Source: a bacterium (GTDB taxonomy: Bacteria; UBA8248). From it: 64,000 nucleotides of DNA. Location of the stretch: assembly GCA_965207065.1 (NCBI GenBank), contig OZ242260.1:3808001-3872000 (forward strand), read 5' to 3'. Below the pieces are notes generated by a model, which did not search any database, was not told where the DNA came from, and saw only the letters and a program-made list of their open reading frames with translations. The translations under genes and the position numbers were made by a program. Below are positions 5,410 to 45,208 of the stretch, piece after piece (the first letter of the stretch is position 1; the number at the start of each line of letters is the position of its first letter).

Positions 5410-5554
5410 CGTCATTCCGGCGGATGCCAAAATCCAGAAACGATTAAGGTGGAGATACTGCGGTTTTTTATTCTCTATCCGATTGGATTGGGGTGACTGA
5501 AAAACCAAAGGTGAAAAATAAGACCCCTGGATTCCTGCATTCGCCGCAATGACG
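5410..5554. repeat. Element bounded by 28-bp inverted repeats (cgtcattccggc...atccag / ctggat...aatgacg)
   Basis: 5410-5437 and 5527-5554 are imperfect reverse complements around an AT-richer spacer. The same arms recur at 38421-38563. Confidence 0.8.
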
Positions 5555-25908: not shown

Positions 25909-26028
25909 TTACAAGCTCTTAGCGACCGGACTCTTCGGTGGTTTCGGCGGTCCCTTGACGCCGCAACCCACGGCCATGCAGGCCATCCCGACAATAAGGA
26001 CGCCCACCAGTAAAATTCTCTTCATCAT
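25909..26028 (-). CDS. Small lipoprotein of the LptM/YifL/LppL type (39 aa)
   Basis: Below the ORF track cutoff. Manual translation gives MMKRILLVGVLIVGMACMAVGCGVKGPPKPPKSPVAKSL*, with a lipobox (AVG-C) and CGxKGP signature. Lies between argH and lysA. Confidence 0.8.
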   Translation of the reverse strand: MMKRILLVGVLIVGMACMAVGCGVKGPPKPPKSPVAKSL

Positions 26029-26029
26029 C

Positions 26030-27457
26030 CTATATTCCCAGTCGTTTTTTCTCGGCCCGTATCTGGGCCCTCACGCTTCTCTTCGAAGCCCCGCCTGCGC
26101 TGCTTCTCGAACGCAGGGACTTCTGCAAATCCGTTTCCGCCAAATCGCCCACGTCGAGCATGGGGTCGGCCTCCTCCAGGTCCTCGGCGCTCAACGCCCC
26201 GAGCGCCACCCCTTTGTCGACCGCGATTCGCACGGCGCGCCCCGCCGCCTCATGCGCCTGGCGGAAGGGAACCCCCCGCCGCACCATGGCGTCCGCCAGG
26301 TCCGTCGCCGTCATGTAGCCGCCCTCTGCGGCTTGCGCCATCGCCTGCTTTTTAAACCGCATGGATTCGACCATGGGCGCCATGACCTCCAGTGAGGCCA
26401 GCAGCGTGTCCGCGGCGTCGAAGAGGGATTCCTTGTCCTCCTGCATATCGCGGTTATAGGTGAGCGGCAGCCCTTTCATCAACGTGAGCAGGGCGATGAG
26501 ATCACCGAAGACGCGCCCGCTCTTGCCCCGGACGATCTCGGCCACGTCGGGGTTTTTCTTCTGCGGCATGAGCGAGCTTCCCGTCGCGAAGGAATCCGCA
26601 AGCTCCACGAAACCGAACTCACCGCTCGCCCAGAGAATGACCTCCTCCCCCAGGCGGCTTAAGTGCATCATCGAAATAGCGGCGGCGGAAGCGAATTCGA
26701 GCGCGAAATCCCTGTCGCTCACCGCGTCCATGCTGTTCTCGGCGACGGAGGCGAACCCGAGCTTTTTCGCCACCATTTTTCTGTCTATCGGGTGGCTCGT
26801 GCCCGCAAGCGCTCCCGCGCCCAGCGGCAGGACGTTGACGCGTGCGCGCGCTTCGGCGAACCGCTCCCCGTCGCGCCTGAGCATCTGGGAATACGCGAGC
26901 AGATGATGCGCCAGCGAGACGGGCTGCGCGCGCTGTAAATGCGTGTAGCCTGGCATCACCGCCTCGACGTGCTCTTCCGCCTGCGCGAGCAGGGCGCGCC
27001 TCAGCTTCAGGAGCGCCTCCCCTATCTCATCTATCCGGTTCCTGAGCCAAAGCCTGAGTGAGGTGGCCACCTGGTCGTTCCGGCTCCGGGCCGTGTGCAG
27101 CCTGCCGCCGACGGCGCCGATTCGCTCCGTCAGCGCCGCCTCGACGTTCATGTGCACGTCTTCGAGTTCGGCCCGGAATTCGAACTTGCCCGCCTCCACT
27201 TCCTTGAATATAGCCTTGAGGCCGGTGACGATTTTCCGCGCATCCGCTTTCGTGATGACCCCCTGCGCTCCGAGCATCTCCGCGTGGGCGACCGAAGCCA
27301 GGACGTCATACGGCGCCAGGCGGTAGTCGAACGAGACGCTCTCGGTGAAGGCCTCCACGCGCGCATCCGTCCCCCCCCGGAACCTCCCGCCCCAGGGTTT
27401 CATGGTCTTCGTCTTCGGAGACTTCGCCACTCGCTTCGGCATCATCTTACTTCCCAT
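26030..27457 (-). CDS. argH: Argininosuccinate lyase
   Basis: WGGRF, EDVHMNVE, HTARSRNDQ, PGYTHLQRAQP and GSSLMPQKKNPD motifs. Confidence 0.97.
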   Translation of the reverse strand: MGSKMMPKRVAKSPKTKTMKPWGGRFRGGTDARVEAFTESVSFDYRLAPYDVLASVAHAEMLGAQGVITKADARKIVTGLKAIFKEVEAGKFEFRAELEDVHMNVEAALTERIGAVGGRLHTARSRNDQVATSLRLWLRNRIDEIGEALLKLRRALLAQAEEHVEAVMPGYTHLQRAQPVSLAHHLLAYSQMLRRDGERFAEARARVNVLPLGAGALAGTSHPIDRKMVAKKLGFASVAENSMDAVSDRDFALEFASAAAISMMHLSRLGEEVILWASGEFGFVELADSFATGSSLMPQKKNPDVAEIVRGKSGRVFGDLIALLTLMKGLPLTYNRDMQEDKESLFDAADTLLASLEVMAPMVESMRFKKQAMAQAAEGGYMTATDLADAMVRRGVPFRQAHEAAGRAVRIAVDKGVALGALSAEDLEEADPMLDVGDLAETDLQKSLRSRSSAGGASKRSVRAQIRAEKKRLGI

Positions 27458-27659
27458 GTTGAACCACGGCGCGCCCCGGAAATTACGCTCAGGGGCGCAA
27501 AGAGAACTGCTTACACGATAGCATGCGGATAGGGCAACCGGGGGACCTGGAAATCAGGCGGAACCGCCCGAATCGCTTGCGGGCGAGCGCCGCATCTTCT
27601 AGGATGAGCCTTACATAGTTTTTTTCAAACCTTTCCGCTGCATTTTTGGGAAAACGTAT

Positions 27660-28940
27660 TTGGAACAAAGAAACCGTTTATTCTCACCCGGACAATGGAT
27701 TTTCATCGTCTCCGCATTTGTCCTCATGGGGCTCTTCTCGGGCCTTAATTTTCTATTCGGCGTATTCCTGAACCCCCTGGTGGACGAGTTCGCCTGGAAC
27801 CGATCGACGGCCTCGGCGGCGTATTCCCTCAACATGTTCATGATAGCGTTCTGCTCGATGATTGCGGGCGGCTTCTCCGATAAATTCGGGACGAGACCCG
27901 TGCTGATCGTCGGGATCCTGATCGCAGGCGGTTCGCTGCTCCTCTCTTTTTTCATCCAGAACCTGTGGCACTACTTCCTGTTCACCGGCGTGATGGCGGG
28001 CACGGGACGCGCGGCCATCGCAACGCCCGTGCAAGCCTTTATTCAGCGCAACCTGAACAGACACCGGGGGCTGGCCACCGGGCTTGCCGGCTCGGGCACG
28101 GGTCTCGGCATATTGATCCTGGCGCCCCTCACCGGCTTTTTCATCAGCAATCACGGATGGAGACTCTCCTATCTGTACCTGGGCGTCATATTTTTCGTTT
28201 TCGCCGTTCCCGCGGCGCTGTCCCTGAAGCCACAAAGACAATCCATGACGGGCGGCGACGGCTCCAAGCAATCCCCGGCCAGACAGGAAGAACCCGACCC
28301 GATTCTCCCCGAAGCGTCCATGGGAATGCGGGAAATACTCAAGCGCAGGCCGTTCTGGATGATCATTTCCAGTCACGCCACCGACTGCATGTGCCACTCG
28401 GTTCTCATCGTTCACCTGGTGCCCATCGCGATTGAGGCGGGCATACCGCACCTGCAGGCGGCGGGACTCGTGGGCGTCATGGGTCTGGGGACGCTCATCG
28501 GGCGAATCAGCATGGGCGTGCTCTCGGACCGAATCGGCTCGAAATGGGCGTTGTTCACCACGCTCACGACGCAGACACTGGCTGTTCCCTTCCTGTTCTG
28601 GATTGATTCCACCTACGCGTTCTATGCCGTCGCCCTGGTGGTCGGGGTCGGCATGGGAGGACACGGGACGATGTATCCCGTGGTCACGCGCGAATACTAT
28701 GGCCCCAAGAAAATAGGCCTCCTCTTCGGGGCCTTCATCACGGGCGCGAGTTCGGGAATGGCCACGGGCGGATTCATGGGCGGGCTGCTCCACGATCTGA
28801 GCGGTAATTACACGCTCTCCATCCTGTTCAGCTTCCTGACCGGGGTCGCCTCGCTGTTCTTCGTGCTCTCCTACCCTTCCAGAGAAAAACCGAGCAGGAA
28901 AGAGGAGGTGGCGCACCCCGCCGCACAACCCGCGGGTTGA
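27660..28940 (+). CDS. MFS transporter (OFA/monocarboxylate-like)
   Basis: About 12 hydrophobic segments and motif A in both halves (GGFSDKFGTR, GVLSDRIGSK). Confidence 0.88.
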   Translation: MEQRNRLFSPGQWIFIVSAFVLMGLFSGLNFLFGVFLNPLVDEFAWNRSTASAAYSLNMFMIAFCSMIAGGFSDKFGTRPVLIVGILIAGGSLLLSFFIQNLWHYFLFTGVMAGTGRAAIATPVQAFIQRNLNRHRGLATGLAGSGTGLGILILAPLTGFFISNHGWRLSYLYLGVIFFVFAVPAALSLKPQRQSMTGGDGSKQSPARQEEPDPILPEASMGMREILKRRPFWMIISSHATDCMCHSVLIVHLVPIAIEAGIPHLQAAGLVGVMGLGTLIGRISMGVLSDRIGSKWALFTTLTTQTLAVPFLFWIDSTYAFYAVALVVGVGMGGHGTMYPVVTREYYGPKKIGLLFGAFITGASSGMATGGFMGGLLHDLSGNYTLSILFSFLTGVASLFFVLSYPSREKPSRKEEVAHPAAQPAG

Positions 28941-29045
28941 GGCGCATTCGCGCAATCGCGGATGCGTGTTCTTGAGCCGGCAAGCGCCGGAATCGATCAG
29001 AAGCGCATTCACATCTTGTAGTGGGCCGTTGTTATGAACGGCTCA

Positions 29046-29249
29046 AGGTCGCGACCTCGGACAGGCACAGGGGCCTGTCCCTACGCAATACGCGATGGTT
29101 CCGTAGGGGCGGCCCCCCGTGGCCGCCCATGCGATCAACGTGTTCCATCATTTCGCATTCGGGATGTATGTCAGCCATATATGTCTGACATATTATGCGA
29201 CCCGTTTTGGGCTGCGGAAGGGCCGGGCCGCATAATATGCGGCCCCTAC
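29046..29249. repeat. GTAG/CTAC REP-like palindrome cluster
   Basis: 29046-29084 matches 19095-19133 at 38/39 nt. Also gtaggggcggccccccgtggccgccc (29103-29128) and gggccgcataatatgcggcccctac (29225-29249). Confidence 0.85.
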
Positions 29250-29292
29250 ACTCTCAAACGGCGCCGTCCGCTGGTGGATTCGGCGAGATACG

Positions 29293-29325
29293 ACACCGGG
29301 CCGCGTCTGAGACGCGGCCCGGTGT
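29293..29325. terminator. Perfect GC-rich hairpin just downstream of katG
   Basis: acaccgggccgcgtct-g-agacgcggcccggtgt, between the convergent MFS and katG genes. Confidence 0.6.
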
Positions 29326-29358
29326 TTCAGCCTGTTTTCCTCGTTTCCCGTTACCCGC

Positions 29359-31608
<2,250 letters not shown>

Positions 31609-31878
31609 TCACACCTACTTCGCCCGGCGCTTCCCGGAGAACAGCGGGCGATTCTGAGTAGCAAAGGAGAGCCGCGTCGTCAATCCGCGCCCGGTGGTAT
31701 TGCGGCGTTGTCGATGGGGCAGCCGAAGAAACGGGTTTCAGAGCCGGGCGGCGCCGTTGCGCCTCGTATTGCGCCTGTCGAGATGGCGGATGAACGGACT
31801 GCGTCCGCCCTCTCTTTGCCGCCTGCCACGGCGAAGAAGTTTACCCGAGGACGCATTCATGGGGGCCGAAAGATTTTT

Positions 31879-31907
31879 TTGACAATTCAGCCCTTCAAAC
31901 CTATTTT
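31879..31907 (+). promoter_or_regulatory. Sigma70-like promoter of the cytochrome c/Nap-like operon
   Basis: TTGACA (31879-31884), 17-nt spacer, TATTTT (31902-31907) in an AT-rich patch. Confidence 0.6.
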
Positions 31908-32039
31908 TATTATATAGGCGTGAGTTCAGCGCATCGAAGAACCATGAGGTCAGACCCCCATTCGGGGGAGAAAAAAGGAGCCAAAGCAACGATCGTCCCA
32001 CCAAAATAGCAGCACGGACTGTTCGAGAGGAGATCACTC

Positions 32040-32780
32040 ATGAAGAAGTGGCGCTCATTCCCGGTTCTCGTCGGTTTTCTCTTCTCTATCCTGCTTACCG
32101 CCACGTTCCTGTACCCCACCGGAACCGACGCCTTCGATCGGGATTCCAAATGGGATACCGTCTATTCGAAGGGCAGCCGGCTCTACCTGACACACTGCGC
32201 GGCCTGCCACGGTAAAAACGGCAAAGGAGGCGTGGGTCTCCCCCTGAACCTGCAAAGCTTCCTGTCCGTCGCGCCCGAAGGGTACATCCGCCGCTCCATC
32301 TTCTACGGGCGCTTGCCGCGCCAGATGATCCCATACGGGACTTTCCTGAAAAAAGAAGACATTGAAGCCATCGCGACCTACGTGCGCAGCTGGCAGCTCC
32401 GCGACTACGCAGGGATCGATCAAAAGCGGGTGGCGGGCTCCGTTTCCCGCGGAAAACTCTTCTTCGACGGGATGTGCTCCGGCTGCCACGGGCGGGACGG
32501 CCTCGGCGGCCCCCAGGTGGGCGGAGGGCACGTGACGAACGCCATGGCGGGCTACGCGGGACCCGCATTGAACAACCAGGGTTTTCTCAAATCCGCCACC
32601 GACGGCTACATCAAGGCGACGATGATGCAGGGCCGGGTCGGTACGCCGATGGGCGCCTACCTCAAGGGAAAGCAGGGGATGGTGGAGCTGACCGAGGAAG
32701 AGATTAACGACATCGTCGCCTACATCCGCACCTGGGAAAAACGCGATTCGGGACTCGTAGACCCCTGGAGGGACAAGTGA
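32040..32780 (+). CDS. Diheme class I c-type cytochrome with N-terminal signal/TM
   Basis: Two CxxCH motifs (CAACH, CSGCH) in two repeated domains with distal Met-like motifs (RQMIPY, TPMGAY). GAGGAG RBS. Confidence 0.9.
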   Translation: MKKWRSFPVLVGFLFSILLTATFLYPTGTDAFDRDSKWDTVYSKGSRLYLTHCAACHGKNGKGGVGLPLNLQSFLSVAPEGYIRRSIFYGRLPRQMIPYGTFLKKEDIEAIATYVRSWQLRDYAGIDQKRVAGSVSRGKLFFDGMCSGCHGRDGLGGPQVGGGHVTNAMAGYAGPALNNQGFLKSATDGYIKATMMQGRVGTPMGAYLKGKQGMVELTEEEINDIVAYIRTWEKRDSGLVDPWRDK

Positions 32781-35416
32781 TGCCGAAATTCAATCGCCGT
32801 GCGTTTCTGCAGTCGTCCACCGCGCTGGCCACCGGACTCGCCATGGGCGGGAGCCTGACCCGCGACAAGGAGCTGTTCCAGCTCGTCGGAGAAGCGGAAG
32901 GCGCCCAGGACACGCGGAAGCTGGTCCCCACGCAATGCCCCTACTGCGGCGTGGGCTGCCACACCTACTACGTCGTCGAGAACGAGAAGATCGTGGCGTG
33001 CATCCCGGACAAGGACTCTCCGGTCAACCTGGGTCTGCAGTGCATCAAGGGCCTCACGGCAGCGGAGTCCCTCTACGTCGACCGGCTGGAGGAGGTGCTC
33101 ATCCGCAAGGACATGTCCAACCCGCTGACCGGGCACGTCTCGAAGACGAAGGGGCGCTTCGATGACGATGTCTTCCGGGTCGGCACGTGGGAAGAAGGCA
33201 TGGAGATCGTCTCCAACATGGTCGCCGGTGTCGTGAAGAAGTATGGGGGAAACTCCGTCGGGGTCTACCAGTCCGGCCAGTTGACCATGGAGGAGCAATG
33301 GCTGGACAACATCTTCTACAAGGGCGTCCTCCAGTCGAACAGCATCGAGGCCAACGCCCGGATGTGCATGACCTCCGCCGTGACGGGCTACATTCACAGC
33401 CTCGGGAGCGACCATCCGCCGGGGAACTATTCCGATATCGAGGATGCCGACTTCATCAACCACTGGGGCCATAACGCGCGCGGGTCGCACCCCGTCCTGT
33501 TCTGGCGCGTGGCGGCCACCAAGGAGAAGCGCAACATCCCGACCATGGTGGTCGACCCGCGCTACACCGGAACCATGGACGGCTACGCCCAGATCAACCC
33601 CAACAACAGCCTCTCGATCACCCTCCGCCCCAACGGCGATCTTTCCCTTCAGAACGCCATCGCCCACGTCCTGATGAAGGAGTTCCCCCAGGCCGTGGAC
33701 GAGGCCTTCATCCGGCAGCACACGGACGGGTTCGACGACTACCGGGCGGGCATCATGGCCCGCTACAGCCCGGAGCAGGTCATCGACCGGACGGGTATCG
33801 CCCCCTCCGTGGTCAGGCGCATCGCCTCGATCTGGGCGGACGCCACACTGAAGGGGAAGCGGCGCAAGAAAGGCGGCGTCCTCTCCTTCTGGGGGATCGG
33901 TTACAACCAGTCGCTCCACGGGCAGCACCGCAACATCAACATCATCAACCTCCATCTGCTGACCGGGAACATCGGCAGGCCGGGCGCCGGCCCGTTCTCC
34001 ATGACGGGGCAGCCCAACGCCATGAGCGAGCGCCTCATGGGCGGCCTGACCGGACGGCTCCCGTTCAACGAGGGCATCAAGAACGCGGCGCACCGCCGGA
34101 AGATAAACGAGGCATGGGGCCTCCCTCCGGGACGGCTCGACGTCACCGCCGAAGCCCCGAACAAGGGCATGACCATCGGCATGTTCGAGCGCGCCCTGAA
34201 GGGAGACATCAAGATAATGCAGTTCGCCTACGCCACCCACGTGGACCTGCCGGAGGTGGAGACCCTCATCCGGCCCGCCATCACCAAGACGTTCACCTAC
34301 ATGGTCGAGGCCTACCGGCACGCCCCGAACCTGCTCTACGGCGACGTCATCTTCCCCGCCGCCACCCACGGCGAGAAATGGGGGGTGTACCAGAACAGCG
34401 AGCGAAAGATGTACGTCACGGACAAGGCCATGGAGCCGCCCAAAAACTGCAGGCCCGACCTGGACGTCATCATCGACGAGGGCAAGTCCATCGCCACGAA
34501 GCTCGGCCTGGATGCGGAGAAGATATTCCCCTACAAGCGGAAGGCGGACGGTTACTATGACCCCGAAGAGGTCTACCGGGACATATGCCGGGCCAGCAAG
34601 GGATCGGATGCGGATTTGACGGGCATCCTGGAGGTGGAAAAGCGGGACAAGCTCTCTCCCTACGAGCAACTCCGCAAGCGCAAGGGAATCTTCTATCCCG
34701 CCCCCACGTATGAGATCGCCAGAGAGGGAGGGGTCGCGCGCAAGTACATGGCGCAGGAGAAGGGCTGGAAGGACAAGCCCTACAGCGCGTTCCGGCGCAA
34801 GGACGGCAAGGCGAAGTTCAAGCTCACCGAGCAGGACTATTCGCGCGCCAAGGAGCTGACGGACATCTTCGCCAAAGCGGGCAAAGACCCGGATTTCTTC
34901 GCCATGGACCATTACGACGTGCTGGTCGAGATGCGCGACAACGGGCTGACGCCGGAACTCCCGGACTTCGACTACTACGGAAAATCCATGGCGGAGATCA
35001 AGCAGGCCGACAAGTACCCCTTCTGGCTGAACCTGGGCGTCGTCTTCGAGCACTTCCACACCACCAAGACGATACGGGCGGCCACCACACGGCGTCTGGT
35101 GCCGGAGCAGTATCTCGAAATGAATCCCCGCGACGCGCGCCGACTGGGGATCGAGGACGGGGAATGGGTCCGGGTCGTGACGCCTCGGGGCAGCTACGAG
35201 GCGCGGGCCAGCATCGGCACGAAGAGCAAGGTCAAGCCCGCGCGCAACAAGGTCATGCCGGGGCAGGTGTTCTCCCCGTGGAACCTTTCCGTCGCGGACA
35301 GCGCCGACCCGAAGAAGAACCGGTGGCTGGTCAACGCGGTCACGCACCGGGCTTTCGATCCGGTATCCGGCCAGGCGGACTTCAAGCACGTAAAAGCGAG
35401 GATCGAGAAGATATAG
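32780..35416 (+). CDS. Tat-exported Mo/W-bisPGD oxidoreductase, nitrate reductase NapA/NasA-like
   Basis: Tat motif NRRAFLQ, [4Fe-4S] CPYCGVGC...CIKG, Cys-ligand region NARMCMTSA, SMTGQPNAM and a C-terminal molydopterin-binding domain. Confidence 0.88.
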   Translation: MPKFNRRAFLQSSTALATGLAMGGSLTRDKELFQLVGEAEGAQDTRKLVPTQCPYCGVGCHTYYVVENEKIVACIPDKDSPVNLGLQCIKGLTAAESLYVDRLEEVLIRKDMSNPLTGHVSKTKGRFDDDVFRVGTWEEGMEIVSNMVAGVVKKYGGNSVGVYQSGQLTMEEQWLDNIFYKGVLQSNSIEANARMCMTSAVTGYIHSLGSDHPPGNYSDIEDADFINHWGHNARGSHPVLFWRVAATKEKRNIPTMVVDPRYTGTMDGYAQINPNNSLSITLRPNGDLSLQNAIAHVLMKEFPQAVDEAFIRQHTDGFDDYRAGIMARYSPEQVIDRTGIAPSVVRRIASIWADATLKGKRRKKGGVLSFWGIGYNQSLHGQHRNINIINLHLLTGNIGRPGAGPFSMTGQPNAMSERLMGGLTGRLPFNEGIKNAAHRRKINEAWGLPPGRLDVTAEAPNKGMTIGMFERALKGDIKIMQFAYATHVDLPEVETLIRPAITKTFTYMVEAYRHAPNLLYGDVIFPAATHGEKWGVYQNSERKMYVTDKAMEPPKNCRPDLDVIIDEGKSIATKLGLDAEKIFPYKRKADGYYDPEEVYRDICRASKGSDADLTGILEVEKRDKLSPYEQLRKRKGIFYPAPTYEIAREGGVARKYMAQEKGWKDKPYSAFRRKDGKAKFKLTEQDYSRAKELTDIFAKAGKDPDFFAMDHYDVLVEMRDNGLTPELPDFDYYGKSMAEIKQADKYPFWLNLGVVFEHFHTTKTIRAATTRRLVPEQYLEMNPRDARRLGIEDGEWVRVVTPRGSYEARASIGTKSKVKPARNKVMPGQVFSPWNLSVADSADPKKNRWLVNAVTHRAFDPVSGQADFKHVKARIEKI

Positions 35417-35500
35417 TTCCTCGATGAACCGAGAGGGACGGGCAGGGAGTTCTCCCCTTCCCCGTCTCGCAGGACCAGGAGGTTTTGGGGAGGCGGGAGA

Positions 35501-36091
35501 ATGGGCCTGAACAGACGGAGGTTCCTGCTCGCGGGGGCGGCGGCGCTCACCGGCGTCGCTTCCCTGCTCGCGACCGGACGAAGGAGTTTCGCGAGGGCCG
35601 GGGCGCGTTTTCGTCGCCTCCTCCGGCCGCCCGGCGCGCTGAGCGAGCAGGAGTTCCTCGATCAGTGCATCCGCTGCGCGAGGTGCGCCGCCGTCTGCCC
35701 GAACACCGCCATTCAGATGACCGGGTTCGGGGAGGGGCTCCGGAACCTCAACACCCCCTACATCGTCCCCCGCGAACAGGCCTGCATGCTCTGCATGAAG
35801 TGCACCGAAGTCTGCCCGACGGGCGCCTTGACCCGAATCTCCGCAGACGATGACGCCGTCCTCACGCAGGTCAAGATGGGACGCGCGGTGGTGGATCGCT
35901 CCATGTGCTTCTCCTACCAGGGGCGCACCTGCGGGGTGTGCATTCGCGCATGCCCCTTTCCCGGGGTGGCCATGAAGACCGGAATGTACGAGCAGCCCAT
36001 CGTGACGGACGCCTGCGTGGGCTGCGGGCTATGCGAGCGCGCCTGCATCCACGTGCCCCAGGCGATCCGCATCGTCCCGGTGGAGTCCTGA
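35501..36091 (+). CDS. NapG/MauM-like polyferredoxin
   Basis: NRRRFLL Tat-like leader, LRPPGA and four Cys clusters (CIRCARCAAVCP, CMLCMKCTEVCP, CGVCIRACP, CVGCGLCERAC). Confidence 0.85.
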   Translation: MGLNRRRFLLAGAAALTGVASLLATGRRSFARAGARFRRLLRPPGALSEQEFLDQCIRCARCAAVCPNTAIQMTGFGEGLRNLNTPYIVPREQACMLCMKCTEVCPTGALTRISADDDAVLTQVKMGRAVVDRSMCFSYQGRTCGVCIRACPFPGVAMKTGMYEQPIVTDACVGCGLCERACIHVPQAIRIVPVES

Positions 36092-36095
36092 TACC

Positions 36096-37619
36096 GTGGT
36101 CGCCTGGCTCAGAAGAGCGATCCAGCTGGGGGCGCTCGGCCTGCTCCTGGCCGTGCCCGCCCTCAATTACGGGGGGATCCTCTACCAGCAGTACGGCAAG
36201 AACGGCTACCACAAGATATCCCTGACGGGGACCGTTTTCGAGCAATGGCTCTACCACCTGTTTTCTGTCACGGTCGGGCGCCTGGCGGACCCCGCCGTCC
36301 GCTCGATGGACTGGGTGGGAAATTTCGGGTCGTTCTCCGTGTTCGGGTTCCCGATTCTCGATCCGGCCGTTGCGGCGGAGACCGTGCTGCGGACCCCGGT
36401 CGTCTGGCCGGCTCTCCTGGCGGGGGCCGCGCTCCCGTTTCTCGTGGCCGTCGTCCTCGGGCGGGTCTTCTGCGGGTGGGTCTGCCCGGTCAACACGCTT
36501 CTCGAGGGATTCGACCTCCTGAGACGGCGCGCGCTGCCGAAGATCGGGGTCCGTCCGCCGGACTTCAAAGTCCCCCGGTGGGCCAAGTGGGTATTGCTCT
36601 TCGCCGGGCTGGGCGCGGCAATCGCCTTCGACATCGCCCTGTGGGCGAACCTCCTCCCCCACGTTCAGATCGGGAGGGACGTGTTCTCTCTGATGGTATT
36701 CGGCGTCACCAACGGCGGCGTCCTGATCTTCTCAGGCGTCATCCTGGCGGAACTGCTCCTCTCCCGCCGGGCCTGGTGCCGCTCCCTCTGCCCGACCGGC
36801 GCGCTGCTGGGATTCTTCGGCTCGCTGGCGCCCTTCCGGGTGCGCAAGGCCGAGCGCGCCTGCATCGACGGCTGCACGGCCTGTGCGCGAGCCTGCCCGA
36901 TGGGAGTCAACCCGGCGGAGCCGTTCTCCCTGGCCGAATGCTACAACTGCGGGGTCTGTACGACCGCGTGCCCCGCAGACCTCCTGACCCTGGGAATCCC
37001 CCCTTCCCCGAGACGCTTCCCGGCCACCCTGCTCTCGCGCCTGAAAAAAGGCGTCTCCCTGGGGTTGGGGCTGGCGTTGCTCCTGGTTCCGCTCGCCGCT
37101 TCGGCCCACCACATGCGGGGAAAGCCCCATTACGGCTATGCGGAGAATTACCCCCAGATCCCCACACGCGAGACGCGCGTCCGGGTCGGCCGATATGACA
37201 TCACCGTGGTGAGCTATTTTTTTGAGGGGCTGCGCCGGCAGACATCGGACACGCCGGACGACGTGCAGTTCTACGTCAGCCTCACGGACGCCAAGACCGG
37301 ACAAAGCTACACCGGTCCCCTGACCATCGAGGTGCGCCGGGGGAAGACCCGGCTTGCGGTCTTCCAGCACGACCGGCCTTTCGAGGAAGCCGTATACCGG
37401 GTCCGCCAGTCGGTGCCGGGAACGGGGCTTTACGACTTGAGGCTCGTCGCCGAGGGGTTTCAGGGGTCCGTCCCGGTCGACGTCCGGGGCGACAGCGTCT
37501 CCTGGATGCCGTACGCGGCGTCGGGCGGGGTCGTACTGTTCGTCCTGCTCCTCTTTATCCACCGCAGGCGCGCCCGCGCGTCCCGCCGGAGGAAGACCCA
37601 TGCGGCATCCGGCGCGTAA
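36096..37619 (+). CDS. NapH/MauN-like membrane polyferredoxin fused to an extra C-terminal membrane-anchored domain
   Basis: GRVFCGWVCP and AWCRSLCPTG motifs and two [4Fe-4S] motifs, then LALLLVPLAASA-HHMRGKPHYGYAENYP... and a final TM with an Arg-rich tail. Confidence 0.82.
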   Translation: MVAWLRRAIQLGALGLLLAVPALNYGGILYQQYGKNGYHKISLTGTVFEQWLYHLFSVTVGRLADPAVRSMDWVGNFGSFSVFGFPILDPAVAAETVLRTPVVWPALLAGAALPFLVAVVLGRVFCGWVCPVNTLLEGFDLLRRRALPKIGVRPPDFKVPRWAKWVLLFAGLGAAIAFDIALWANLLPHVQIGRDVFSLMVFGVTNGGVLIFSGVILAELLLSRRAWCRSLCPTGALLGFFGSLAPFRVRKAERACIDGCTACARACPMGVNPAEPFSLAECYNCGVCTTACPADLLTLGIPPSPRRFPATLLSRLKKGVSLGLGLALLLVPLAASAHHMRGKPHYGYAENYPQIPTRETRVRVGRYDITVVSYFFEGLRRQTSDTPDDVQFYVSLTDAKTGQSYTGPLTIEVRRGKTRLAVFQHDRPFEEAVYRVRQSVPGTGLYDLRLVAEGFQGSVPVDVRGDSVSWMPYAASGGVVLFVLLLFIHRRRARASRRRKTHAASGA

Positions 37620-37692
37620 GACAACCCGGACCCTCGTCTTTCTCCCGGCGCCGGCGACGCCTGCCCGGCGGCCGGCCTGAGGCTGCGAGAAG

Positions 37693-38268
37693 ATGCCGAT
37701 AGAATTCGACCGGCGGGCTTTCCTGCAAAGGGGGCCTTTCGCATTTATCCAGGCGGTTCTCTCCGAATCTTCCGCCGGTAACGCCGATACGCCCCGCCCC
37801 CCGCTCCGGCCCCCGGGCGCAGCGCCGGAGGAGGAATTCCTGGAGCTTTGCTGCGGCGTCGGCGCATGCGCGGAGGTCTGCCCGGCCGACGCCATCCGGT
37901 TGGTCCCCAGAGAGGGGGATTCGGGAACCCGCCACCCGGTCATCGTCCCCCAGGAGGCCGCCTGCATCGTCTGTGAGGACCTCGCCTGCATGAAGGCCTG
38001 CCCGAGCGGCGCCCTCTCCCTGGTGTCAGTTGAGGAGATCCGTATCGGGCGCGCGCAGGTGAGTCCCGACCGCTGCCTCGCGTGGAGCGGGACGGACCCG
38101 GGGTGCGATTACTGCGTGGACCGGTGCCCCCTCGGGTCAGAAGCCATCCGCCTCGAGCGCGCAGGAGGAGTGCGCGGCCCCGTGGTCGAGAAAGGGTGCG
38201 TCGGGTGCGGCGTATGCGAGTATTTCTGCCCGACGCAGCCCTCCGCCATCCGGGTGTATCCCTGCTGA
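37693..38268 (+). CDS. NapF/MauM-like polyferredoxin
   Basis: DRRAFLQ, LRPPGA and clusters CCGVGACAEVCP, CIVCEDLACMKACP, CDYCVDRCP and CVGCGVCEYFCP. Confidence 0.82.
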   Translation: MPIEFDRRAFLQRGPFAFIQAVLSESSAGNADTPRPPLRPPGAAPEEEFLELCCGVGACAEVCPADAIRLVPREGDSGTRHPVIVPQEAACIVCEDLACMKACPSGALSLVSVEEIRIGRAQVSPDRCLAWSGTDPGCDYCVDRCPLGSEAIRLERAGGVRGPVVEKGCVGCGVCEYFCPTQPSAIRVYPC

Positions 38269-38341
38269 TCCCCGCCGGAAAAGCTGCAAACACTCGCTCT
38301 TCGCTCGCGTCAAACGCTCCCTCACTGGTGTCGGAGTTGTC

Positions 38342-38734
38342 CCACAGGTCGCGACTTCGGACAGGCACGGGGGCCTCGGACAGGCGCGGGGGCCTGTCCG
38401 CTACGGTACTCGCTTTTGATCGTCATTCCGGCGCATGCCGGAATCCAGGTACTTTGCCTTTGTTTCTTTATTTCTTCTGCATTCCCGCCAGTGAATGGGG
38501 GATGAAAAACCGGAGCGACGCCATTCTCCTCGGCTCTGGATTCCGGCTTTCGCCGGAATGACGGTGGTTTTCCTGCATCGAGGGGGTTTTCAACAACCCT
38601 GACAAGGGGGTGTGTTTTTTTAGCGGACAGGCGAGGAAGCCGAAATCATATCCCCGTTCCCCGTAGTGACAGCCCCTGCTCGGGGCTGTTCCACAGGTCG
38701 CGACTTCGGACAGGCACGGGGGCCTGTCCGCTAC
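38342..38734. repeat. Mixed repeat cluster: two REP-like copies flanking a cgtcattccggc inverted-repeat element
   Basis: ccacaggtcgcgacttcggacaggcacgggggcctgtccgctac at 38691-38734 and, with an internal duplication, at 38342-38404. Inverted arms at 38421-38448 and 38536-38563. Confidence 0.85.
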
Positions 38735-39263
38735 ACCCCCTTCTTCCGGGGGGCATCGCCGACCGACGCGCATGGAGGCATCCCTCCCCCTGCAAGCAAT
38801 CAGACATTCCCTCTATGGGGGCGGCCGTAAGCTGCGCGCATTTGCCCGCATTTGCGGCGGCGGGCGGCGAGAGGTTCGGGGGTATCCTGAGAGGTTGGCC
38901 TGACGTGCGGCTCCCCTTCCCGGGATGGGCCGGCTTCGTTTTCCGGCAGGAACCGCCCGCGCATTTCCGCGCATTTGCGGCGGCGCGCGGAGCGGCGCGT
39001 GCGGGTATGATGGCGGAGCGGCTCGGCGCGTTCAAAATTATGGAATTTCCGTAAATATAGATAAATTCACGGGGTAATTCAGTAAATTACTGAAAATTTT
39101 CAAGGGGAAATGCGGGAGGATGCGCCCGTGAAAACCGGTTCCGACGACCCGATCCGGCCGCCGCCATAACCAGGCGCGGGGGAATTCTGCCACGGCCCGC
39201 CAGGCCCGCGACAACGGCAAATGCGGGGAAACGCGCTTTTCCCGCCAAGACCTCCGGGTCGTC

Positions 39264-39292
39264 TTGACACCCACCGGCTGTGTTGGTAGGTT
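39264..39292 (+). promoter_or_regulatory. Sigma70-like promoter of the F0 operon
   Basis: TTGACA (39264-39269), 17-nt spacer, TAGGTT (39287-39292) preceded by TGn (extended -10). Confidence 0.65.
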
Positions 39293-39333
39293 CCCGCCCG
39301 TAAATTCGTCGCCGCACTTCTCGTCCGGGGAGA

Positions 39334-39606
39334 ATGCAGGGCATGGCCTCCGATCCTCCTCCAGAGCCGGGCCGCGGACCACTAGCGAAGAAACCGGCCA
39401 GGGCGCGGGACAGGAAAATCCGCAAGGGCGTGCGGAACGTGCACCTCGCGGCACTGGGCTGGAACTTCGTGACGGCGCCGCTCGTAGGCGGCGGCATCGG
39501 GTATGTCATTGATCATTATGCCGGTACATATCCGTGGGCGATGGTAATCGGGTTGTTTCTGGGTTTTGTTTCCGCTTTTATCGATCTCATCAGAGGCGTC
39601 CGCTGA
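39334..39606 (+). CDS. AtpZ/AtpI-family small membrane protein (start may be 39343)
   Basis: GGGIGYVIDHYAGTYPWAMVIGLFLGFVSAF pattern. First gene of the F0 operon. Confidence 0.85.
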   Translation: MQGMASDPPPEPGRGPLAKKPARARDRKIRKGVRNVHLAALGWNFVTAPLVGGGIGYVIDHYAGTYPWAMVIGLFLGFVSAFIDLIRGVR

Positions 39607-40002
39607 ATGCGAAACCAAGACCCGCCGTCATCCATCCTCAGGAGCATATCGAACTCCGGCTGGCTGATTCTGGCTCTGATGAGCGCGGCGGGGCTGGTTC
39701 TCAAGGACGTTCCGACGGCCCTGGGCGTGGCGACAGGCGGGGCTTGCGGGCTTGGAAGTTTCCGGATGATGGATGTATACTTCGCCCGCATTTTTCAACA
39801 AAACGTCAGCCGCCCGAAATGGTGGCATCACGTTTTATACATATTGCGCTTTTTCGCCCTCATGGGCGTCGTAGCGCTCGCGATAGGCTGGGCAGGGCTT
39901 CCCGTCGTGAGCGTGGTGATAGGGTTGACCATTCCGCCGTTGGCCATATTCATTCACGGGGCTCGATACGCCCTGCGAATACAAGGATCTACAAGAGCAT
40001 AA
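39607..40002 (+). CDS. atpI: ATP synthase subunit I
   Basis: Four hydrophobic segments with YILRFF, located directly before atpB. Confidence 0.75.
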   Translation: MRNQDPPSSILRSISNSGWLILALMSAAGLVLKDVPTALGVATGGACGLGSFRMMDVYFARIFQQNVSRPKWWHHVLYILRFFALMGVVALAIGWAGLPVVSVVIGLTIPPLAIFIHGARYALRIQGSTRA

Positions 40003-40005
40003 CAC

Positions 40006-40725
40006 ATGGAAAAATTTCACCCGTTCCTGTATTTCGACATCTACCCGGGGCTCTCCGCCTATCCCAACATCGTGTACAGCTGGCTGGTGATGGTGTTCCT
40101 CATCGTGACCTCACTGCTCGTCACCAAAGCGCTGCAAAAGATACCCGTTGGCGGACAAAACCTCTTCGAGGCGATTTTCGACGGGTTTTCCGCCTTCATG
40201 GAAGGCCCCCTCGGCAATGAGGGGCGTCCCTTCTTCCCCCTCGTATTCACGCTGGGCACCTACATTTTCCTGTGCAACGTCATTGGAATCCTGCCCGGCT
40301 TCATGGCGCCGACGAGCAACCTGAACACCAACGTGGGTTGTGCGCTCACCGTGTTTTTCGCCACCCATTACGTGGGACTCAAGAGAAGCGGCATGGCGTA
40401 TCTCAAGCATTTCACGGGCCCCATCATGTGGCTGGCGCCGCTCATGATACCCATCGAGATTATCTCTCATCTGAGCCGTCCCCTTTCACTCACTTTGCGC
40501 CTTTTCGGGAACATCACGGGCGAGGAACTCGTACTCGGCGTTCTGATGCTGCTCTGCCTGCAGATTTTCCTGCCCGTTCCCTGGGCGATGCAGATGTTCG
40601 TCATTTTCGGAAGTTTCATTCAGGCCTTTGTTTTCACCCTCTTGACCATGATATATATCGCCGGGTCGCTTGAAGGACACGACCACGACGAGGAGCATGG
40701 CCATGAGGCCGCCCACGCTCATTAA
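40006..40725 (+). CDS. atpB: F0F1 ATP synthase subunit a
   Basis: QNLFE, APTSNLN, PIEIISHLSRPLSLTLRLFGNI and IQAFVFTLLTMIYI motifs, with a His-rich tail. Confidence 0.97.
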   Translation: MEKFHPFLYFDIYPGLSAYPNIVYSWLVMVFLIVTSLLVTKALQKIPVGGQNLFEAIFDGFSAFMEGPLGNEGRPFFPLVFTLGTYIFLCNVIGILPGFMAPTSNLNTNVGCALTVFFATHYVGLKRSGMAYLKHFTGPIMWLAPLMIPIEIISHLSRPLSLTLRLFGNITGEELVLGVLMLLCLQIFLPVPWAMQMFVIFGSFIQAFVFTLLTMIYIAGSLEGHDHDEEHGHEAAHAH

Positions 40726-40771
40726 CGATAACGGTTCATGTAGGAATCACTTCAACAAGGAGAAGCAAGGG

Positions 40772-41092
40772 ATGAAACGCTTGGGGATAATCGGATTCAC
40801 GTTAGCCAGCTTCGCAGCCATGGCCACCAATGCCTTCGCCGCCGCAGCCGGCGATGCCGGAAGCGGTGAGGTTATGAAATGGAGAATGATCTCCTCGTCG
40901 TTCGCTCTGGCCATCGCCGCCGCAGCGGGCGCCTTCGCCCAGAGCAGGAGCATCGCCAGCGCCTTGGACGGCACGGCGCGCAACCCGGGAGCCGGCGGAG
41001 ATCTTCGCGTGTCGATGATCATCGGTCTCGCCTTAATCGAGTCCCTTGTCATTTATACGTTCGTAATCTGCCTCATCATCATCCTTGGCTAG
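40772..41092 (+). CDS. atpE: F0F1 ATP synthase subunit c with N-terminal extension
   Basis: ATG 40772 with an AGGAG RBS, ARNP loop and GLALIESLVIY. Confidence 0.96.
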   Translation: MKRLGIIGFTLASFAAMATNAFAAAAGDAGSGEVMKWRMISSSFALAIAAAAGAFAQSRSIASALDGTARNPGAGGDLRVSMIIGLALIESLVIYTFVICLIIILG

Positions 41093-41115
41093 ATAAACCA
41101 GCGCTCGCAAGACTC

Positions 41116-41143
41116 AAGGGGGGGCCGGACGGCTCCCCCTTTT
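41116..41143 (+). terminator. Rho-independent terminator after atpE
   Basis: G-rich arm ending ggcc, ggac loop, then ggctccccc followed by tttt. Confidence 0.75.
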
Positions 41144-41345
41144 CGCGTTGGCCGACGACGATTGTCTGGATACGCGTTCCCAGGATGTCCTGTTTACTGA
41201 AGCATTGAAAATATCTGCTTTTTCGATGCCGGCTGAGCCCCACTTGCCCTTCTCATCAAAACGCATAGAATCTACTCTCGCCCTGGAGAGCCATACGCAG
41301 CGAGACTCTCTTCTGGCCTTTAAATCGCGGGTGTTTATAAAGCCG

Positions 41346-41987
41346 ATGTGGGAAAACACAAAAACAAGAATCCCCGAGGCTACCGTCAACCGGTTGTCCA
41401 CCTACGCCCGCATTCTGGATCAGATAAAAAGCGAGGAGACCGAACTCATCGCGTCCGCCGACCTGGCACGGCAGTGCGGATTCAAGCCTGCGCAAATCAG
41501 GAAAGACCTTGCCTATTTCGGAGATTTCGGTGTCCGCGGGAAGGGCTATTACATCAAGGAGTTGAGGGATAATCTAAAAAAAATCCTGGGCGTAACGCAG
41601 ACATGGAAAGTCGTACTCGTCGGGGCGGGCCATCTCGGTTCGGCCCTATTGGCGTATAAAGGATTTCTGGCTCATGGCTTTGAAATCGACGCTGTTTTCG
41701 ACAAATTCCCTGAAAAAATACCCCCTCACCGGACCGGCTCTCACCCTGTTTTGGCGATGTCGGATTTGCATGAGGTCGTGAAAGAAAAACAAATCAAGAT
41801 CGGCATCATTGCGGTGCCGAGTGAAAGCGCGCAAAATGTAGGGACGGCTCTCGTGAATGCCGGCATAACCGGCATATTGAATTTCGCTCCCACCCAAATT
41901 CAAACGCCGCTCCACATAAAGGTGAAAAACGTGGATCTAGGCAGTGAACTGGAACATCTCTCATTTTATCTCTCAAAAAACCCTTGA
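41346..41987 (+). CDS. rex: Redox-sensing transcriptional repressor Rex
   Basis: IPEATVNRLSTY, QIRKDLAYFGDFGVRGKGY, VGAGHLG and ILNFAP motifs. Start set at ATG 41346. Confidence 0.95.
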   Translation: MWENTKTRIPEATVNRLSTYARILDQIKSEETELIASADLARQCGFKPAQIRKDLAYFGDFGVRGKGYYIKELRDNLKKILGVTQTWKVVLVGAGHLGSALLAYKGFLAHGFEIDAVFDKFPEKIPPHRTGSHPVLAMSDLHEVVKEKQIKIGIIAVPSESAQNVGTALVNAGITGILNFAPTQIQTPLHIKVKNVDLGSELEHLSFYLSKNP

Positions 41988-42001
41988 GGGGCCGCACCTG
42001 T

Positions 42002-43058: not shown

Positions 43059-43423
43059 AATTTCGGTGTTTCGCTCTCTGAAGTATGCTAGAGCCTTGAA
43101 ACAAAAGATTTTACGTTTTCATCCTTGACCAGAAGGAAAAACATGCAGTAATATCACGCGTCGTGTACTTGAGATATCGGGATGAATCACTCACCCGGGC
43201 TTTTCTGAGACGTATTCAGCGTTTTAGCACACGAATTATTATGGAAAACGGCCAAATGGGTCCGAAAAAGATGTTGTGGAATAAGGAGTCTGGCGTAAGA
43301 AGGGGGCGGTGTGCCCTCGTGCGCCGTCCCCTGATTTCTTCTTAACGACCCGCCGGCATCATCGGCGTTTTTCGGATCAACTTCATTGTCAGCGTGAGAA
43401 CAAGCTCAACTGGCAGAGAGGAA

Positions 43424-45208
43424 ATGGCCGTGGCGACCAAGGCGAAAAGCCAAACTACAAAACAACCTGCAAAACTGAAACCGAAGAAAATCTCTGGGGC
43501 CGAGATTATCTACCGCAGCCTTGAGCGCGAGGGCGTAAAGTACGTTTTCGGACATCCGGGCGCTATACTTCTTACGCTCCTGGACCTGTTTCTCGAGAGA
43601 AGCAAAATCAAGCATCTGCTGATCCGGCATGAGCAATGCGCCGCTCATATGGCCGAGGGTTATGCTCGCGCAAGTGGGACGGTAGGCGTATGCCTTACTA
43701 CATCCGGTCCGGGCGCTACGAATCTCATCACAGGCATCACAGATGCCTACATGGATTCCATTCCTATCGTATGCCTCACGGGGCAAGTCGCCACTACGAT
43801 GGTGGGCAACGACGCCTTTCAGGAAGCCGACATCGTCGGCATGACCAGAACCATCACCAAGCACAGCTATTTGGTTCAGAGCACGGATGATCTTGCGGAA
43901 ACAATCCAGGAGGCTTTCTACATCGCACGCACGGGAAGGCCCGGCCCGGTCCTCGTTGATTTGCCCAAAGACGTCCTCCTCGGTGATGGGTTCTACCAGA
44001 TTCCAGAGAAAGTGGATCTTCGCGGCTACAAGCCCACGACCAAAGGCCATCCCAGGCAAATCCAGCGCGTAGCCGAAGCCATAAAAGAATCCAAACAACC
44101 CCTTCTCTACGTGGGCGGTGGCGCCATTCATTCGGAAGCGAACAAGGAGATACTGAAACTCGCGGAAACGGCGGAGATTCCAGTCACATACACTCTTCTG
44201 GGAGCAGGTGCTTTCCCAAGCGCACATGAACTCTCTTTGGGAATGCTCGGCATGCACGGGACGGCATACGCCAACTACGCGACCATGGAGTGCGATTTGC
44301 TCATCGCCGTCGGCGCGCGGTTTGACGACCGCGTCACCGGCAAGGTCTCGGAATTCGCGACCCGGGCGAAAATCATCCATATCGACATTGACCCCACGGC
44401 CATCGGAAAAAACAAGGCAGCGGATATCCCGGTCGTCGGTGACGCGCGCCAAGTGCTCGCCGAGGTCAACAAACTCGTCAAGCCTCAAAAGCGCGCCTTG
44501 TGGAAAAAGCGGTTCCAGAATCTGAGATCGGAATATCCGCTTTCGTTCGACTCCCCCGAGGGTGCGCCGATCAAGCCGCAAGAGGCTATCGTCGCCTTGA
44601 GTGAGGAAGTGGGCGATAAAGCGGTCATCACCACCGAGGTTGGACAACACCAGATGTGGGCCGCCCAATTTTACAATTTCACCTTCCCTCGCCAGTTCAT
44701 CTCGTCCGGCGGCCTTGGAACCATGGGCTTCGGCTTTCCCGCGGCCATCGGCGCGGCGCTGGCAAGACCGGATAAGTTGGCCATCGACATTGCGGGAGAC
44801 GGAAGTTTTCAGATGGTGATGCAGGAAATCGCCACGGCCGTTCAATACGACATTCCCGTAAAAGTATTTTTGCTCAACAACGCCACGCTGGGCATGGTTC
44901 GTCAATGGCAGGACCTGTTTATGGATCGACGATTCAGCGAAGTGGATTTCGATTCCTCGCCTGATTACGTCAAACTAGCGGAAGCATTCGGCGCCAGTGG
45001 TCGCCGGATCGTAGACAAAGAAGAAATCAGACCCGCCATTCAGGAAATGATCAATACGCCGGGACCCTACATCCTGGACGTGATCGTCGACCCTGACGAA
45101 TTGGTGTTCCCGATGGTGCCCGCAGGCGGCGCGACAAAAGACATGATCGTGCGCGACAGCCGAAAAAAAGTACTTCAAGGCAAGCTCAGCGCCTTGCCTG
45201 ATAACTAG
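43424..45208 (+). CDS. ilvB: Acetolactate synthase large subunit (paralog 1)
   Basis: RHEQ, TSGPGATN, DAFQEAD, GRPGPVLVDLPKD, RFDDRVTG, VGQHQMWAAQ and GDGSF...LNN...GMVRQWQ motifs. Confidence 0.93.
   Translation: MAVATKAKSQTTKQPAKLKPKKISGAEIIYRSLEREGVKYVFGHPGAILLTLLDLFLERSKIKHLLIRHEQCAAHMAEGYARASGTVGVCLTTSGPGATNLITGITDAYMDSIPIVCLTGQVATTMVGNDAFQEADIVGMTRTITKHSYLVQSTDDLAETIQEAFYIARTGRPGPVLVDLPKDVLLGDGFYQIPEKVDLRGYKPTTKGHPRQIQRVAEAIKESKQPLLYVGGGAIHSEANKEILKLAETAEIPVTYTLLGAGAFPSAHELSLGMLGMHGTAYANYATMECDLLIAVGARFDDRVTGKVSEFATRAKIIHIDIDPTAIGKNKAADIPVVGDARQVLAEVNKLVKPQKRALWKKRFQNLRSEYPLSFDSPEGAPIKPQEAIVALSEEVGDKAVITTEVGQHQMWAAQFYNFTFPRQFISSGGLGTMGFGFPAAIGAALARPDKLAIDIAGDGSFQMVMQEIATAVQYDIPVKVFLLNNATLGMVRQWQDLFMDRRFSEVDFDSSPDYVKLAEAFGASGRRIVDKEEIRPAIQEMINTPGPYILDVIVDPDELVFPMVPAGGATKDMIVRDSRKKVLQGKLSALPDN

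Follow-up and report, generated by a model that had tools for sequence, protein, structure and literature searches.

Periplasmic nitrate reductases of the Nap type are the closest described counterparts of the system reported here. In the accessible text of a 2026 review there are four nap operon types, each with napD, while a 2025 NapA phylogeny covers cultured organisms only and a comparison of Nitrospinota records napAB in four metagenome-assembled genomes (MAGs), again as far as the available parts of these papers extend (PMC10839748, PMC12769810, PMC10732223, PMC13223375). Nitrogen-cycle surveys count napA by profile models, according to the accessible portion of the methods of PMC10359470. 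We analysed a 64,000-nucleotide stretch of a bacterial genome of the lineage UBA8248 (assembly GCA_965207065.1, contig OZ242260.1, positions 3808001-3872000; hereafter the window), in which five co-directional open reading frames (ORFs) on the plus strand, at 32040-38268, encode a cytochrome c, a catalytic MopB subunit, and NapG-like, NapH-like and NapF-like proteins. The host genome is a single, closed contig of 4,476,866 bases that is 96.06% complete. We propose, with moderate confidence and from sequence comparison, that this operon encodes a periplasmic respiratory reductase that is independent of NapB and NapD and that probably acts on nitrate.

The catalytic subunit (32777-35416, plus strand; 879 amino acids) has Fe4S4, Molybdopterin and Molydop_binding domains in Pfam, a twin-arginine translocation (Tat) signal (NRRAFLQ), a [4Fe-4S] motif (CPYCGVGC...C), a molybdenum-ligand motif (NARMCMTSA) and a conserved arginine within GQPNAMSER; the RRxF motif was found on MopB in all 17 related loci inspected. 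By sequence, its closest solved structure is the monomeric NapA of Desulfovibrio desulfuricans (6e-80). The closest fold is likewise 2nap (E 4.1e-46), followed by the NapA of Cupriavidus necator and Escherichia coli and by formate dehydrogenases, based on an AlphaFold2 (AF2) model from 17 sequences whose mean predicted local distance difference test (pLDDT) value was 70.3, low at the cofactor-binding segments, and which was used for fold ranking only. Identity to NapA relatives was 27-32%. On the NCBIfam NapA models NF010055 and TIGR01706, MopB reached 336.1 bits (cut-off 904) and 306.5 bits (cut-off 930.55), about one third of the cut-off, and scores were similarly low for formate dehydrogenase and for Nas (NasA, 247.9 bits against 1000; a second Nas model, 242.5 against 1100). 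Within a 50%-identity library the family comprised P0121-P0123 (966.5, 803.3, and 514.0 bits) and the 680-residue P0124 (388.5 bits), with the next full-length protein at 340.9 bits and 38% identity. The representatives P0121-P0123 scored 286-400 bits on the NapA model, and none of ten representatives scanned exceeded any curated cut-off.

For phylogenetic placement, annotated NapA, Nas, and FdhF proteins from public plasmid and E. coli records served as references. The FastTree analysis used 128 rows (102 of 150 representatives, kept at a length of 640-1000, with 17 family rows and 9 references), and the IQ-TREE analysis used 58 hand-picked rows spanning every clade, with 726 columns under LG+G4. 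In the latter, the 17 rows of the MopB family were grouped with support of 100/100 on a stem of 0.51, outside both the NapA clade (12 rows, 100/99, including the E. coli, Cereibacter, Burkholderia, and Selenomonas references) and the Nas clade (14 rows, 100/100); FastTree also recovered the family outside the NapA clade. The family stood beside Nap plus Nas with weak support (84/52), and approximately unbiased (AU) tests left both sister relationships standing, that to Nas at p 0.164 and that to Nap at p 0.148. Lying outside both clades, MopB is therefore neither NapA nor an exported NasA; it is a distinct family branching beside Nap and Nas. An original prediction for this locus, made from its letters, had proposed building such a superfamily tree, in which MopB is not nested in the characterised NapA clade, and its view that an assimilatory-type enzyme is exported does not survive the placement of MopB in its own family outside the Nas clade.

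NapB and NapD of canonical Nap systems are missing from the genome as well as from the operon. Searches of the closed genome returned no match to NapD (PF03927) or NapB (PF03892), and one weak match to the NapC/NirT family (27.4 bits) lay ~204 kb from the operon; the operon cluster itself contains none of napD, napB, napC, and napM. The earlier claim that napB, napC, and napD are lacking thus extends to the genome as a whole, save for this weak NapC/NirT match, and the description of a non-canonical, Nap-like periplasmic system with a different cytochrome is borne out. A divergent but canonical NapA system, falling within the known nap operon types, would explain the NapG-, NapH-, and NapF-like genes, the top solved match to NapA, and the labels that family members bear in some sources (NapA, nitrate reductase, or ferredoxin-nitrate reductase). 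We nevertheless consider it very improbable, given the position of the family outside the NapA clade, NapA scores of about one third of the cut-offs, and an operon that carries a constant extra domain without napD, napB, napC, or napM, whereas the known operon types all have napD in the available literature text.

Other redox genes in the genome are consistent with a respiratory role for the operon enzyme. No NarG or NxrA was found in the genome, and the sole chaperone gene of the TorD/NarJ type directly follows another, Psr-like MopB gene. The Molybdopterin domain occurs in nine ORFs, and six others that were scanned include an NAD-type formate dehydrogenase, a BisC/TorA-family reductase, and a Nas-like enzyme of 719 amino acids (L083), which is signal-less, of the cytoplasmic type, and separate from the operon MopB; the genome therefore already has a candidate assimilatory nitrate reductase. 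The operon MopB is its only candidate respiratory nitrate reductase. Another MopB ORF of 888 amino acids (L091, G000:C1:2224413-2227079) has the N-terminus …TTACDYCIVGCGY…, which may resemble those of arsenite-oxidase or iodate-reductase-type enzymes.

The active site retains the Cys-Met pair and the arginine of nitrate reductases. Invariant columns of the family alignment (A2) include C54, C57, C61, C89, C197, M198, and R419, and EANARMCMTSAVTGY is invariant throughout the family, with the molybdenum-ligand cysteine followed by methionine. At this position the family has CMTSA, compared with CMASA in Nap, CMSSA in Nas, and CH in six formate dehydrogenase rows; a formate dehydrogenase alpha subunit (FdhF/FdsA type) was ruled out by the Cys-Met pair, as opposed to selenocysteine or cysteine followed by histidine. 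In a HMMER alignment to D. desulfuricans NapA, whose chain numbering follows that of the literature, Cys140, Met141, Asp155, Gln346, and Arg354 are kept, and the active-site arginine is conserved across the MopB family. The strings to which the original prediction drew attention (NRRAFLQ, NARMCMTSA, YQSGQL, GQPNAM, and NLGVVFEHFHT) are each found in the translation, and its motif comparison holds at the family level, with GQPNAM as in Nas rather than the GQPSAC of NapA. Because the Cys-Met ligand motif and the active-site arginine are kept, nitrate reduction is the likeliest activity.

All five predicted genes are present on the plus strand, and those around MopB encode plausible electron-transfer partners. 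The cytochrome c (32040-32780; 246 amino acids) is a diheme class I protein with heme motifs CAACH (residue 53) and CSGCH (residue 146), a hydrophobic N-terminal segment (6-24) typical of a general secretory (Sec) signal, and two Cytochrom_C domains (Pfam Cytochrom_C, 5.9e-21; Cytochrome_CBB3, 2.2e-18). It passed no NCBIfam cut-off, the top model being CcoP (61.9 bits against 179.95), and both heme motifs together with the methionine ligands M96 and M204 are invariant in 17 cytochromes (alignment A3). Its stop codon (TGA, 32778-32780) overlaps the start of MopB (GTG at 32777 or ATG at 32780), as had been noted before, which suggests translational coupling. A complex prediction with MopB 48-879, cytochrome 130-246, and one heme scored 0.00 in both runs and, having no controls, is uninformative either way.

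The NapG-like periplasmic ferredoxin (35501-36091, plus strand; 196 amino acids) has a Tat-type N-terminus, NRRRFLL with a hydrophobic stretch at 8-26, and four Cys clusters, and scored 129.9 bits (cut-off 269) and 112.1 bits (cut-off 178.85) on two NCBIfam models of the NapG/MauM family; in the related clusters inspected, the first NapG-like protein also has RRxF followed by a hydrophobic stretch. The last gene (37693-38268, plus strand; 191 amino acids) encodes a poly-ferredoxin with four Cys clusters, two of them non-canonical, and an RR motif (DRRAFLQ) that is not followed by a hydrophobic stretch. It had been called NapF, although the NapG model scores it higher (108.6 bits, cut-off 269) than the NapF model (40.3 bits, cut-off 102.2); since it has no export-type hydrophobic stretch, a cytoplasmic, NapF-like role is the better reading, and this part of the earlier assignment is kept. 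Relatives inspected share the arrangement, with an RR or RK motif and then a polar segment in the last ferredoxin. Three loci (L003, L019, and L050) have an additional pair of NapH-like (~345 amino acids) and NapG-like genes between the extended NapH and the last ferredoxin gene.

The NapH-like protein (36096-37619, plus strand; 507 amino acids in total) combines a membrane ferredoxin core with a C-terminal extension. The core (approximately residues 1-305; 36096-37010) was delimited with NCBIfam NapH, Pfam Fer4_5, hydropathy, and motifs; on two NCBIfam models of the NapH/MauN family it reaches 115.2 bits (cut-off 234, NapH, matched over residues 5-299) and 108 bits (cut-off 213.05), and residues 1-300 contain four membrane helices, the CX3CP motifs CGWVCP and CRSLCP, and two [4Fe-4S] motifs. 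The extension (approximately residues 306-507; 37011-37619) opens with a signal-like helix ending in ASA and the segment HHMRGKPHYGYAENYPQIP, continues into a beta-sandwich, and closes with a membrane helix and a basic tail. No Pfam family matched it at E values up to 5. Among 26 aligned sequences, its start motif HHxxGxPHYxYxxNYPQxP has invariant G, P, H, Y, N, Y, Q, and P, and the leading pair of histidines is nearly so.

The extension was present in 66 of the 80 related loci described below, and 12 of the units derived from them have it as a gene of its own (X22). In six free-standing homologues (188-216 amino acids), a Sec signal ending in AxA immediately precedes HH, and a C-terminal anchor is present. 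A profile search returned 110 matches, with no Pfam family on the domain itself and ferredoxin families on fused fragments only. In an AF2 model (mean pLDDT 84.8) the beta-sandwich, residues 59-164 of the modelled piece, exceeded 90, and a fold search found nothing at E 0.001 or better; the top rows (E 1.7e-3 to 1.3e-2) include the periplasmic, copper-binding CrdA and FetP among unrelated beta-sandwiches and serve as a lead only. YtkA, with a protein atlas score of 0.87-0.88 and an annotation on 18% of one cluster, was below the trusted level and was rejected. The "fusion" part of NapH is an unnamed periplasmic beta-sandwich domain, which other lineages secrete as a protein of its own. The mature form would begin with His-His, which on such a domain hints at a metal site, and the AxA site points to possible cleavage of the fused form; the extension may bind metal, and signal peptidase may release it from NapH.

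Taken together, the predicted proteins outline a path in which electrons from membrane quinol would enter at the NapH-like protein, continue through the Tat-exported NapG-like ferredoxin, reach the diheme class I cytochrome c that stands in place of NapB, and finally flow through the [4Fe-4S] cluster of MopB to a Cys-ligated Mo-bis-pterin site, where nitrate would be reduced to nitrite. The fifth protein would remain in the cytoplasm with a NapF-like role in maturation, no NapD being used, and the His-rich beta-sandwich on NapH is the module's constant fifth component. What the enzyme reduces, which way the reaction runs, and the order of the carriers are all inferred.

A scan of one genome per species yielded 239 relatives, of which the best 80 loci (56-97% identity) were kept. 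All of their ORFs were clustered, and 12 near-identical loci were counted once, giving 69 units, many of them cut by contig ends. Loci near-identical to the operon are in MAGs titled Nitrospinota or Nitrospinaceae, and the MAG titles overall include Nitrospinota, Methylomirabilales, Binatia, Entotheonella, Myxococcota, Planctomycetota, Poribacteria, Omnitrophota, Latescibacterota, Gemmatimonadota, Sericytochromatia, Wallbacteria, Cloacimonadota, and others. A cytochrome c gene lies upstream of MopB in 59 of the 69 units, NapG/F-like genes occur in 63/69, and a NapH-type gene occurs in 49/69. Downstream of the NapH-type gene, 33 units encode an unnamed protein of 520-720 amino acids (X9; loci include L021, L027, L030, L039, L042, L064, L068, L071, and L075), which has no Pfam match in the L023 copy, shows weak likeness to the NapH core by tblastn, and is absent from the lineage of the window. 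Nitrospinota-labelled MAGs share the gene order of the operon with Myxococcota, Planctomycetota, Poribacteria, Sericytochromatia, and others, so that we interpret the operon as an old, mobile, and conserved module, contrary to the earlier idea that it was independently assembled. Enzyme copies that are 84-85% identical (L015 and L016 compared with L013 and L014) were observed in MAGs titled Binatia, Methylomirabilales, and Nitrospinota; as these have look-alike accession series, either recent transfer between phyla or a binning error is involved.

Some lineages place further redox genes before the cluster. Cytochrome b, Rieske protein, and FeS-flavoprotein genes were found upstream in 12, 11, and 10 of the 69 units, respectively. 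In L060, L064, L068, L075, and about eight more, FeS-flavoprotein (Pyr_redox_2 plus Fer4), Rieske, and cytochrome b genes are followed by a long multi-domain cytochrome c and MopB, in MAGs that include Phycisphaerae and Wallbacteria. This layout resembles the Rieske/cytochrome b complexes of the anammox type.

These loci bear on the direction of electron flow. MopB might instead act as an oxidase or dehydrogenase, for instance on nitrite or a different reduced oxyanion; the class I cytochrome c would then take up the electrons and hand them to a terminal oxidase, with the NapGH-like pair either delivering a share of them to quinone or helping in activation. Such a scheme fits the presence of a diheme, CcoP-like cytochrome of class I as the partner instead of NapB, the 10-12 related loci with Rieske, cytochrome b, and FeS-flavoprotein genes, and the Nitrospinota-titled carriers, which are without nitrite oxidoreductase (NXR; 0 of the 51 genomes of the window's phylum set at E 1e-50). 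To our knowledge, all characterised Cys-Met members of this branch are reductases. MAGs that carry the family belong to numerous phyla, most of them heterotrophic, a link to a bc-type complex would suit the supply of electrons just as well, and quinol-oxidising modules of the NapGH type are known as electron donors in the available text of Kern and Simon; we therefore regard an oxidase as improbable.

A more far-reaching model combines these elements into a distinct respiratory module in which a membrane-anchored periplasmic His-His protein would be obligatory, bearing a histidine-brace-like metal site and freed from NapH by signal peptidase, with a substrate other than nitrate or an oxidising direction, and, in some lineages, coupled to anammox-type Rieske/cytochrome b complexes. 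We consider this model tentative and rather unlikely, and retain a NapB- and NapD-independent reductase, most likely for nitrate, as the preferred interpretation.

Within the genus, the operon is an accessory element. The MopB family was found in 19 of the 51 genomes of the phylum set, namely 13 of 22 genus mates, the genome of the window, and 5 others. In the same 51 genomes NarG was not found at E 1e-50 or better, and NapD was found in one, which is without the MopB family. In five genus mates that lack the family, argH and the atp genes are syntenic but separated by 3.0-9.5 kb, compared with 12.5 kb in the window (27457-40006), and this interval is variable among them (G022, G027, G033, G034, and G035). 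It holds a major facilitator superfamily (MFS) gene and katG in G027, MFS only in G035, and MFS with ~6.4 kb that has no match to window 26000-42000 in G022. The flanks of G027 align at 89-94%, and window positions 31695-39158, a segment that takes in the five genes together with the promoter region and the repeats downstream, are replaced by 264 bases. The operon is thus a discrete accessory cassette of 7.5 kb that is present or absent within the genus.

Six sequencing runs that hold part of the stretch are recorded as RNA, and four of them, from four studies, were compared. Contigs from these libraries cover 25, 10, 19, and 8 of 30 bins at 90-99% likeness, and one of 1817 nucleotides (31974-33738, 103 differences) bridges the junction between cytochrome and MopB. 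Parts of napH and of the last gene have little or no contig cover, which is not evidence of anything.

Several considerations weigh against a nitrate-reducing respiratory system and have to be set beside the evidence above. Class I cytochromes c often serve oxidising enzymes. Relative to D. desulfuricans NapA, Glu156 is replaced by His and Met308 by Ile in the HMMER alignment, and three further segments, which Nap, Nas, formate dehydrogenase, and a fourth group conserve (D. desulfuricans NapA does so only in part), are altered across the MopB family: TGR reads LGV; GSNxAExHP reads WGHNARGxHP; and HWHT reads HFHT. No curated nitrate-reductase model in NCBIfam is passed by MopB or by the family representatives. 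Likewise, no nitrite reductase scored above its curated level in the genome, with NirK short of its cut-off and weak matches for cytochrome d1-like and NrfA-like proteins, so that a downstream pathway is not evident. The RNA-library contigs show presence only, as DNA carry-over is possible, and are not proof of transcription. Pairs of the NapG/H type serve other periplasmic enzymes, as reflected in the NCBIfam model names MauM/NapG and NapH/MauN, and a NosGH module is described for another periplasmic enzyme in the accessible literature. Finally, full-text literature searches, which did not cover supplementary tables that perhaps list such genes as napA, found no description or assay of the MopB family or the operon.

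MopB might instead reduce a different oxyanion or an oxide (chlorate, perchlorate, selenate, or iodate, for example) through the same path of NapGH-like proteins and cytochrome c. The long stem (0.51) with invariant, family-specific changes near the cofactor-binding segments, the E156-to-H and M308-to-I replacements near the NapA active site, and scores far below the cut-offs of all curated nitrate-reductase models are in line with such a change of substrate, and the fold appears permissive, given that Campylobacter jejuni NapA is reported, in the part of the source available, to accept chlorate and perchlorate too. Against this, both the Cys-Met motif and the arginine of nitrate reductases are invariant in the family, and of acceptors of this kind nitrate is much the most common in the marine and host-associated samples that the MAG titles mention. 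The conserved neighbourhoods, moreover, contain no gene recognisable as one that would deal with a toxic product, for example chlorite, and recurrent neighbours with a Pfam match are all electron-transfer proteins, although the most recurrent unnamed neighbours, X9 and X22, have no Pfam match and other clusters were left unannotated. We consider a different oxyanion unlikely, if worth keeping in view, and nitrate the more plausible substrate of this NapB- and NapD-independent enzyme.

Signals flanking the operon were located by pattern scans. A promoter-like site (TTGACA, a 17-nucleotide spacer, and TATTTT; 31879-31907, plus strand) matches the consensus at 10/12 positions ~130 nucleotides 5' of the cytochrome c start; the scan over 31400-39400 gave 2 sites compared with 1.2 expected from shuffles, and the site is a pattern match only. 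An FNR-type box 5' of the operon was rejected, the only candidate being TTGA-N12-TCAA at the promoter-like site, with a spacing that differs from the known one. Downstream of the last gene are a terminator-like hairpin with a T run (38596-38621, plus strand) and a second terminator-like site (38550-38577), both of which are consensus matches only. Short, interspersed intergenic repeats occur at 19080-19125, 29031-29076, 38331-38395, and 38680-38725, and also at 5409-5437, 38420-38448, and 38534-38569. One repeat family has the core GGTCGCGAC.TCGGACAGGCAC.GGGGCCT and another is palindromic, of the type TCATTCCGGCG...CGCCGGAATGA; copies flank katG plus the operon on both sides. The copy at 38534-38569 reached a summed depth of >1000 in one RNA run, in many contigs with unrelated flanks. 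Elsewhere in the window, two adjacent paralogous genes of ~600 amino acids (43394-45208 and 45221-46915) contain repeats spaced 1734-1740 bases apart, with stretches that are 70-83% identical.

These results have consequences for how periplasmic nitrate reduction is counted. Gene surveys may count the MopB family as ordinary napA. Should nitrate be its substrate, a route independent of NapB and NapD would exist in many uncultured bacteria of marine and host-associated origin. The use of a class I cytochrome and, in some lineages, a link to bc-type complexes may give that route energetics different from those of Nap; if the family does something else, napA counts would be inflated. The module also raises the question of how a Tat-exported molybdoenzyme matures with no chaperone gene of the NapD or TorD type nearby, and its His-rich periplasmic domain is a constant, unnamed, and testable target.

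Among described systems, the monomeric NapA enzymes that work with NapGH, those of D. desulfuricans (2nap, 2jio; napCMADGH) and Selenomonas ruminantium (napD-G-H-C-A, L093), are without NapB, as is the operon, and share with it a Tat-exported MopB with an N-terminal [4Fe-4S] cluster, the Cys-Met pair, the arginine, and both NapG and NapH; the operon differs in having no NapD, NapC, or NapM and in its class I diheme cytochrome and extra NapH domain. NasA, NasC, and NarB share the GQPNAM and SGQL variants with MopB, and a sister relationship to them is not rejected, as reported above, but Nas enzymes are cytoplasmic and adjacent to nirBD in reference loci, whereas MopB has a Tat signal and respiratory partners. 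In the accessible literature, the Wolinella-type NosGH with NosC cytochromes, and MauMN, combine a NapG/NapH-type pair and small c-type cytochromes with a non-Nap periplasmic enzyme, as the operon does; they serve copper N2O reductase or methylamine dehydrogenase instead of a MopB protein. The NapC-independent NapAGHBFLD system of Wolinella succinogenes and C. jejuni has a NapF-type ferredoxin and, as far as the sources available describe it, a NapGH quinol dehydrogenase that feeds a diheme cytochrome. That cytochrome is NapB and is accompanied by NapD and NapL, whereas the cytochrome of the operon is of the Cytochrom_C/CBB3 type in a genome without NapB and NapD. Lastly, the Bacillus azotoformans cluster napG1ABDG2 (PMC3475470, available in part) keeps NapB, NapD, and a bona fide NapA, unlike the operon, but has two NapG-type ferredoxins, one of which has a Tat signal while the other is a proposed cytoplasmic replacement for NapF; the missing export signal of the fifth protein of the operon parallels this Tat-less NapG1.

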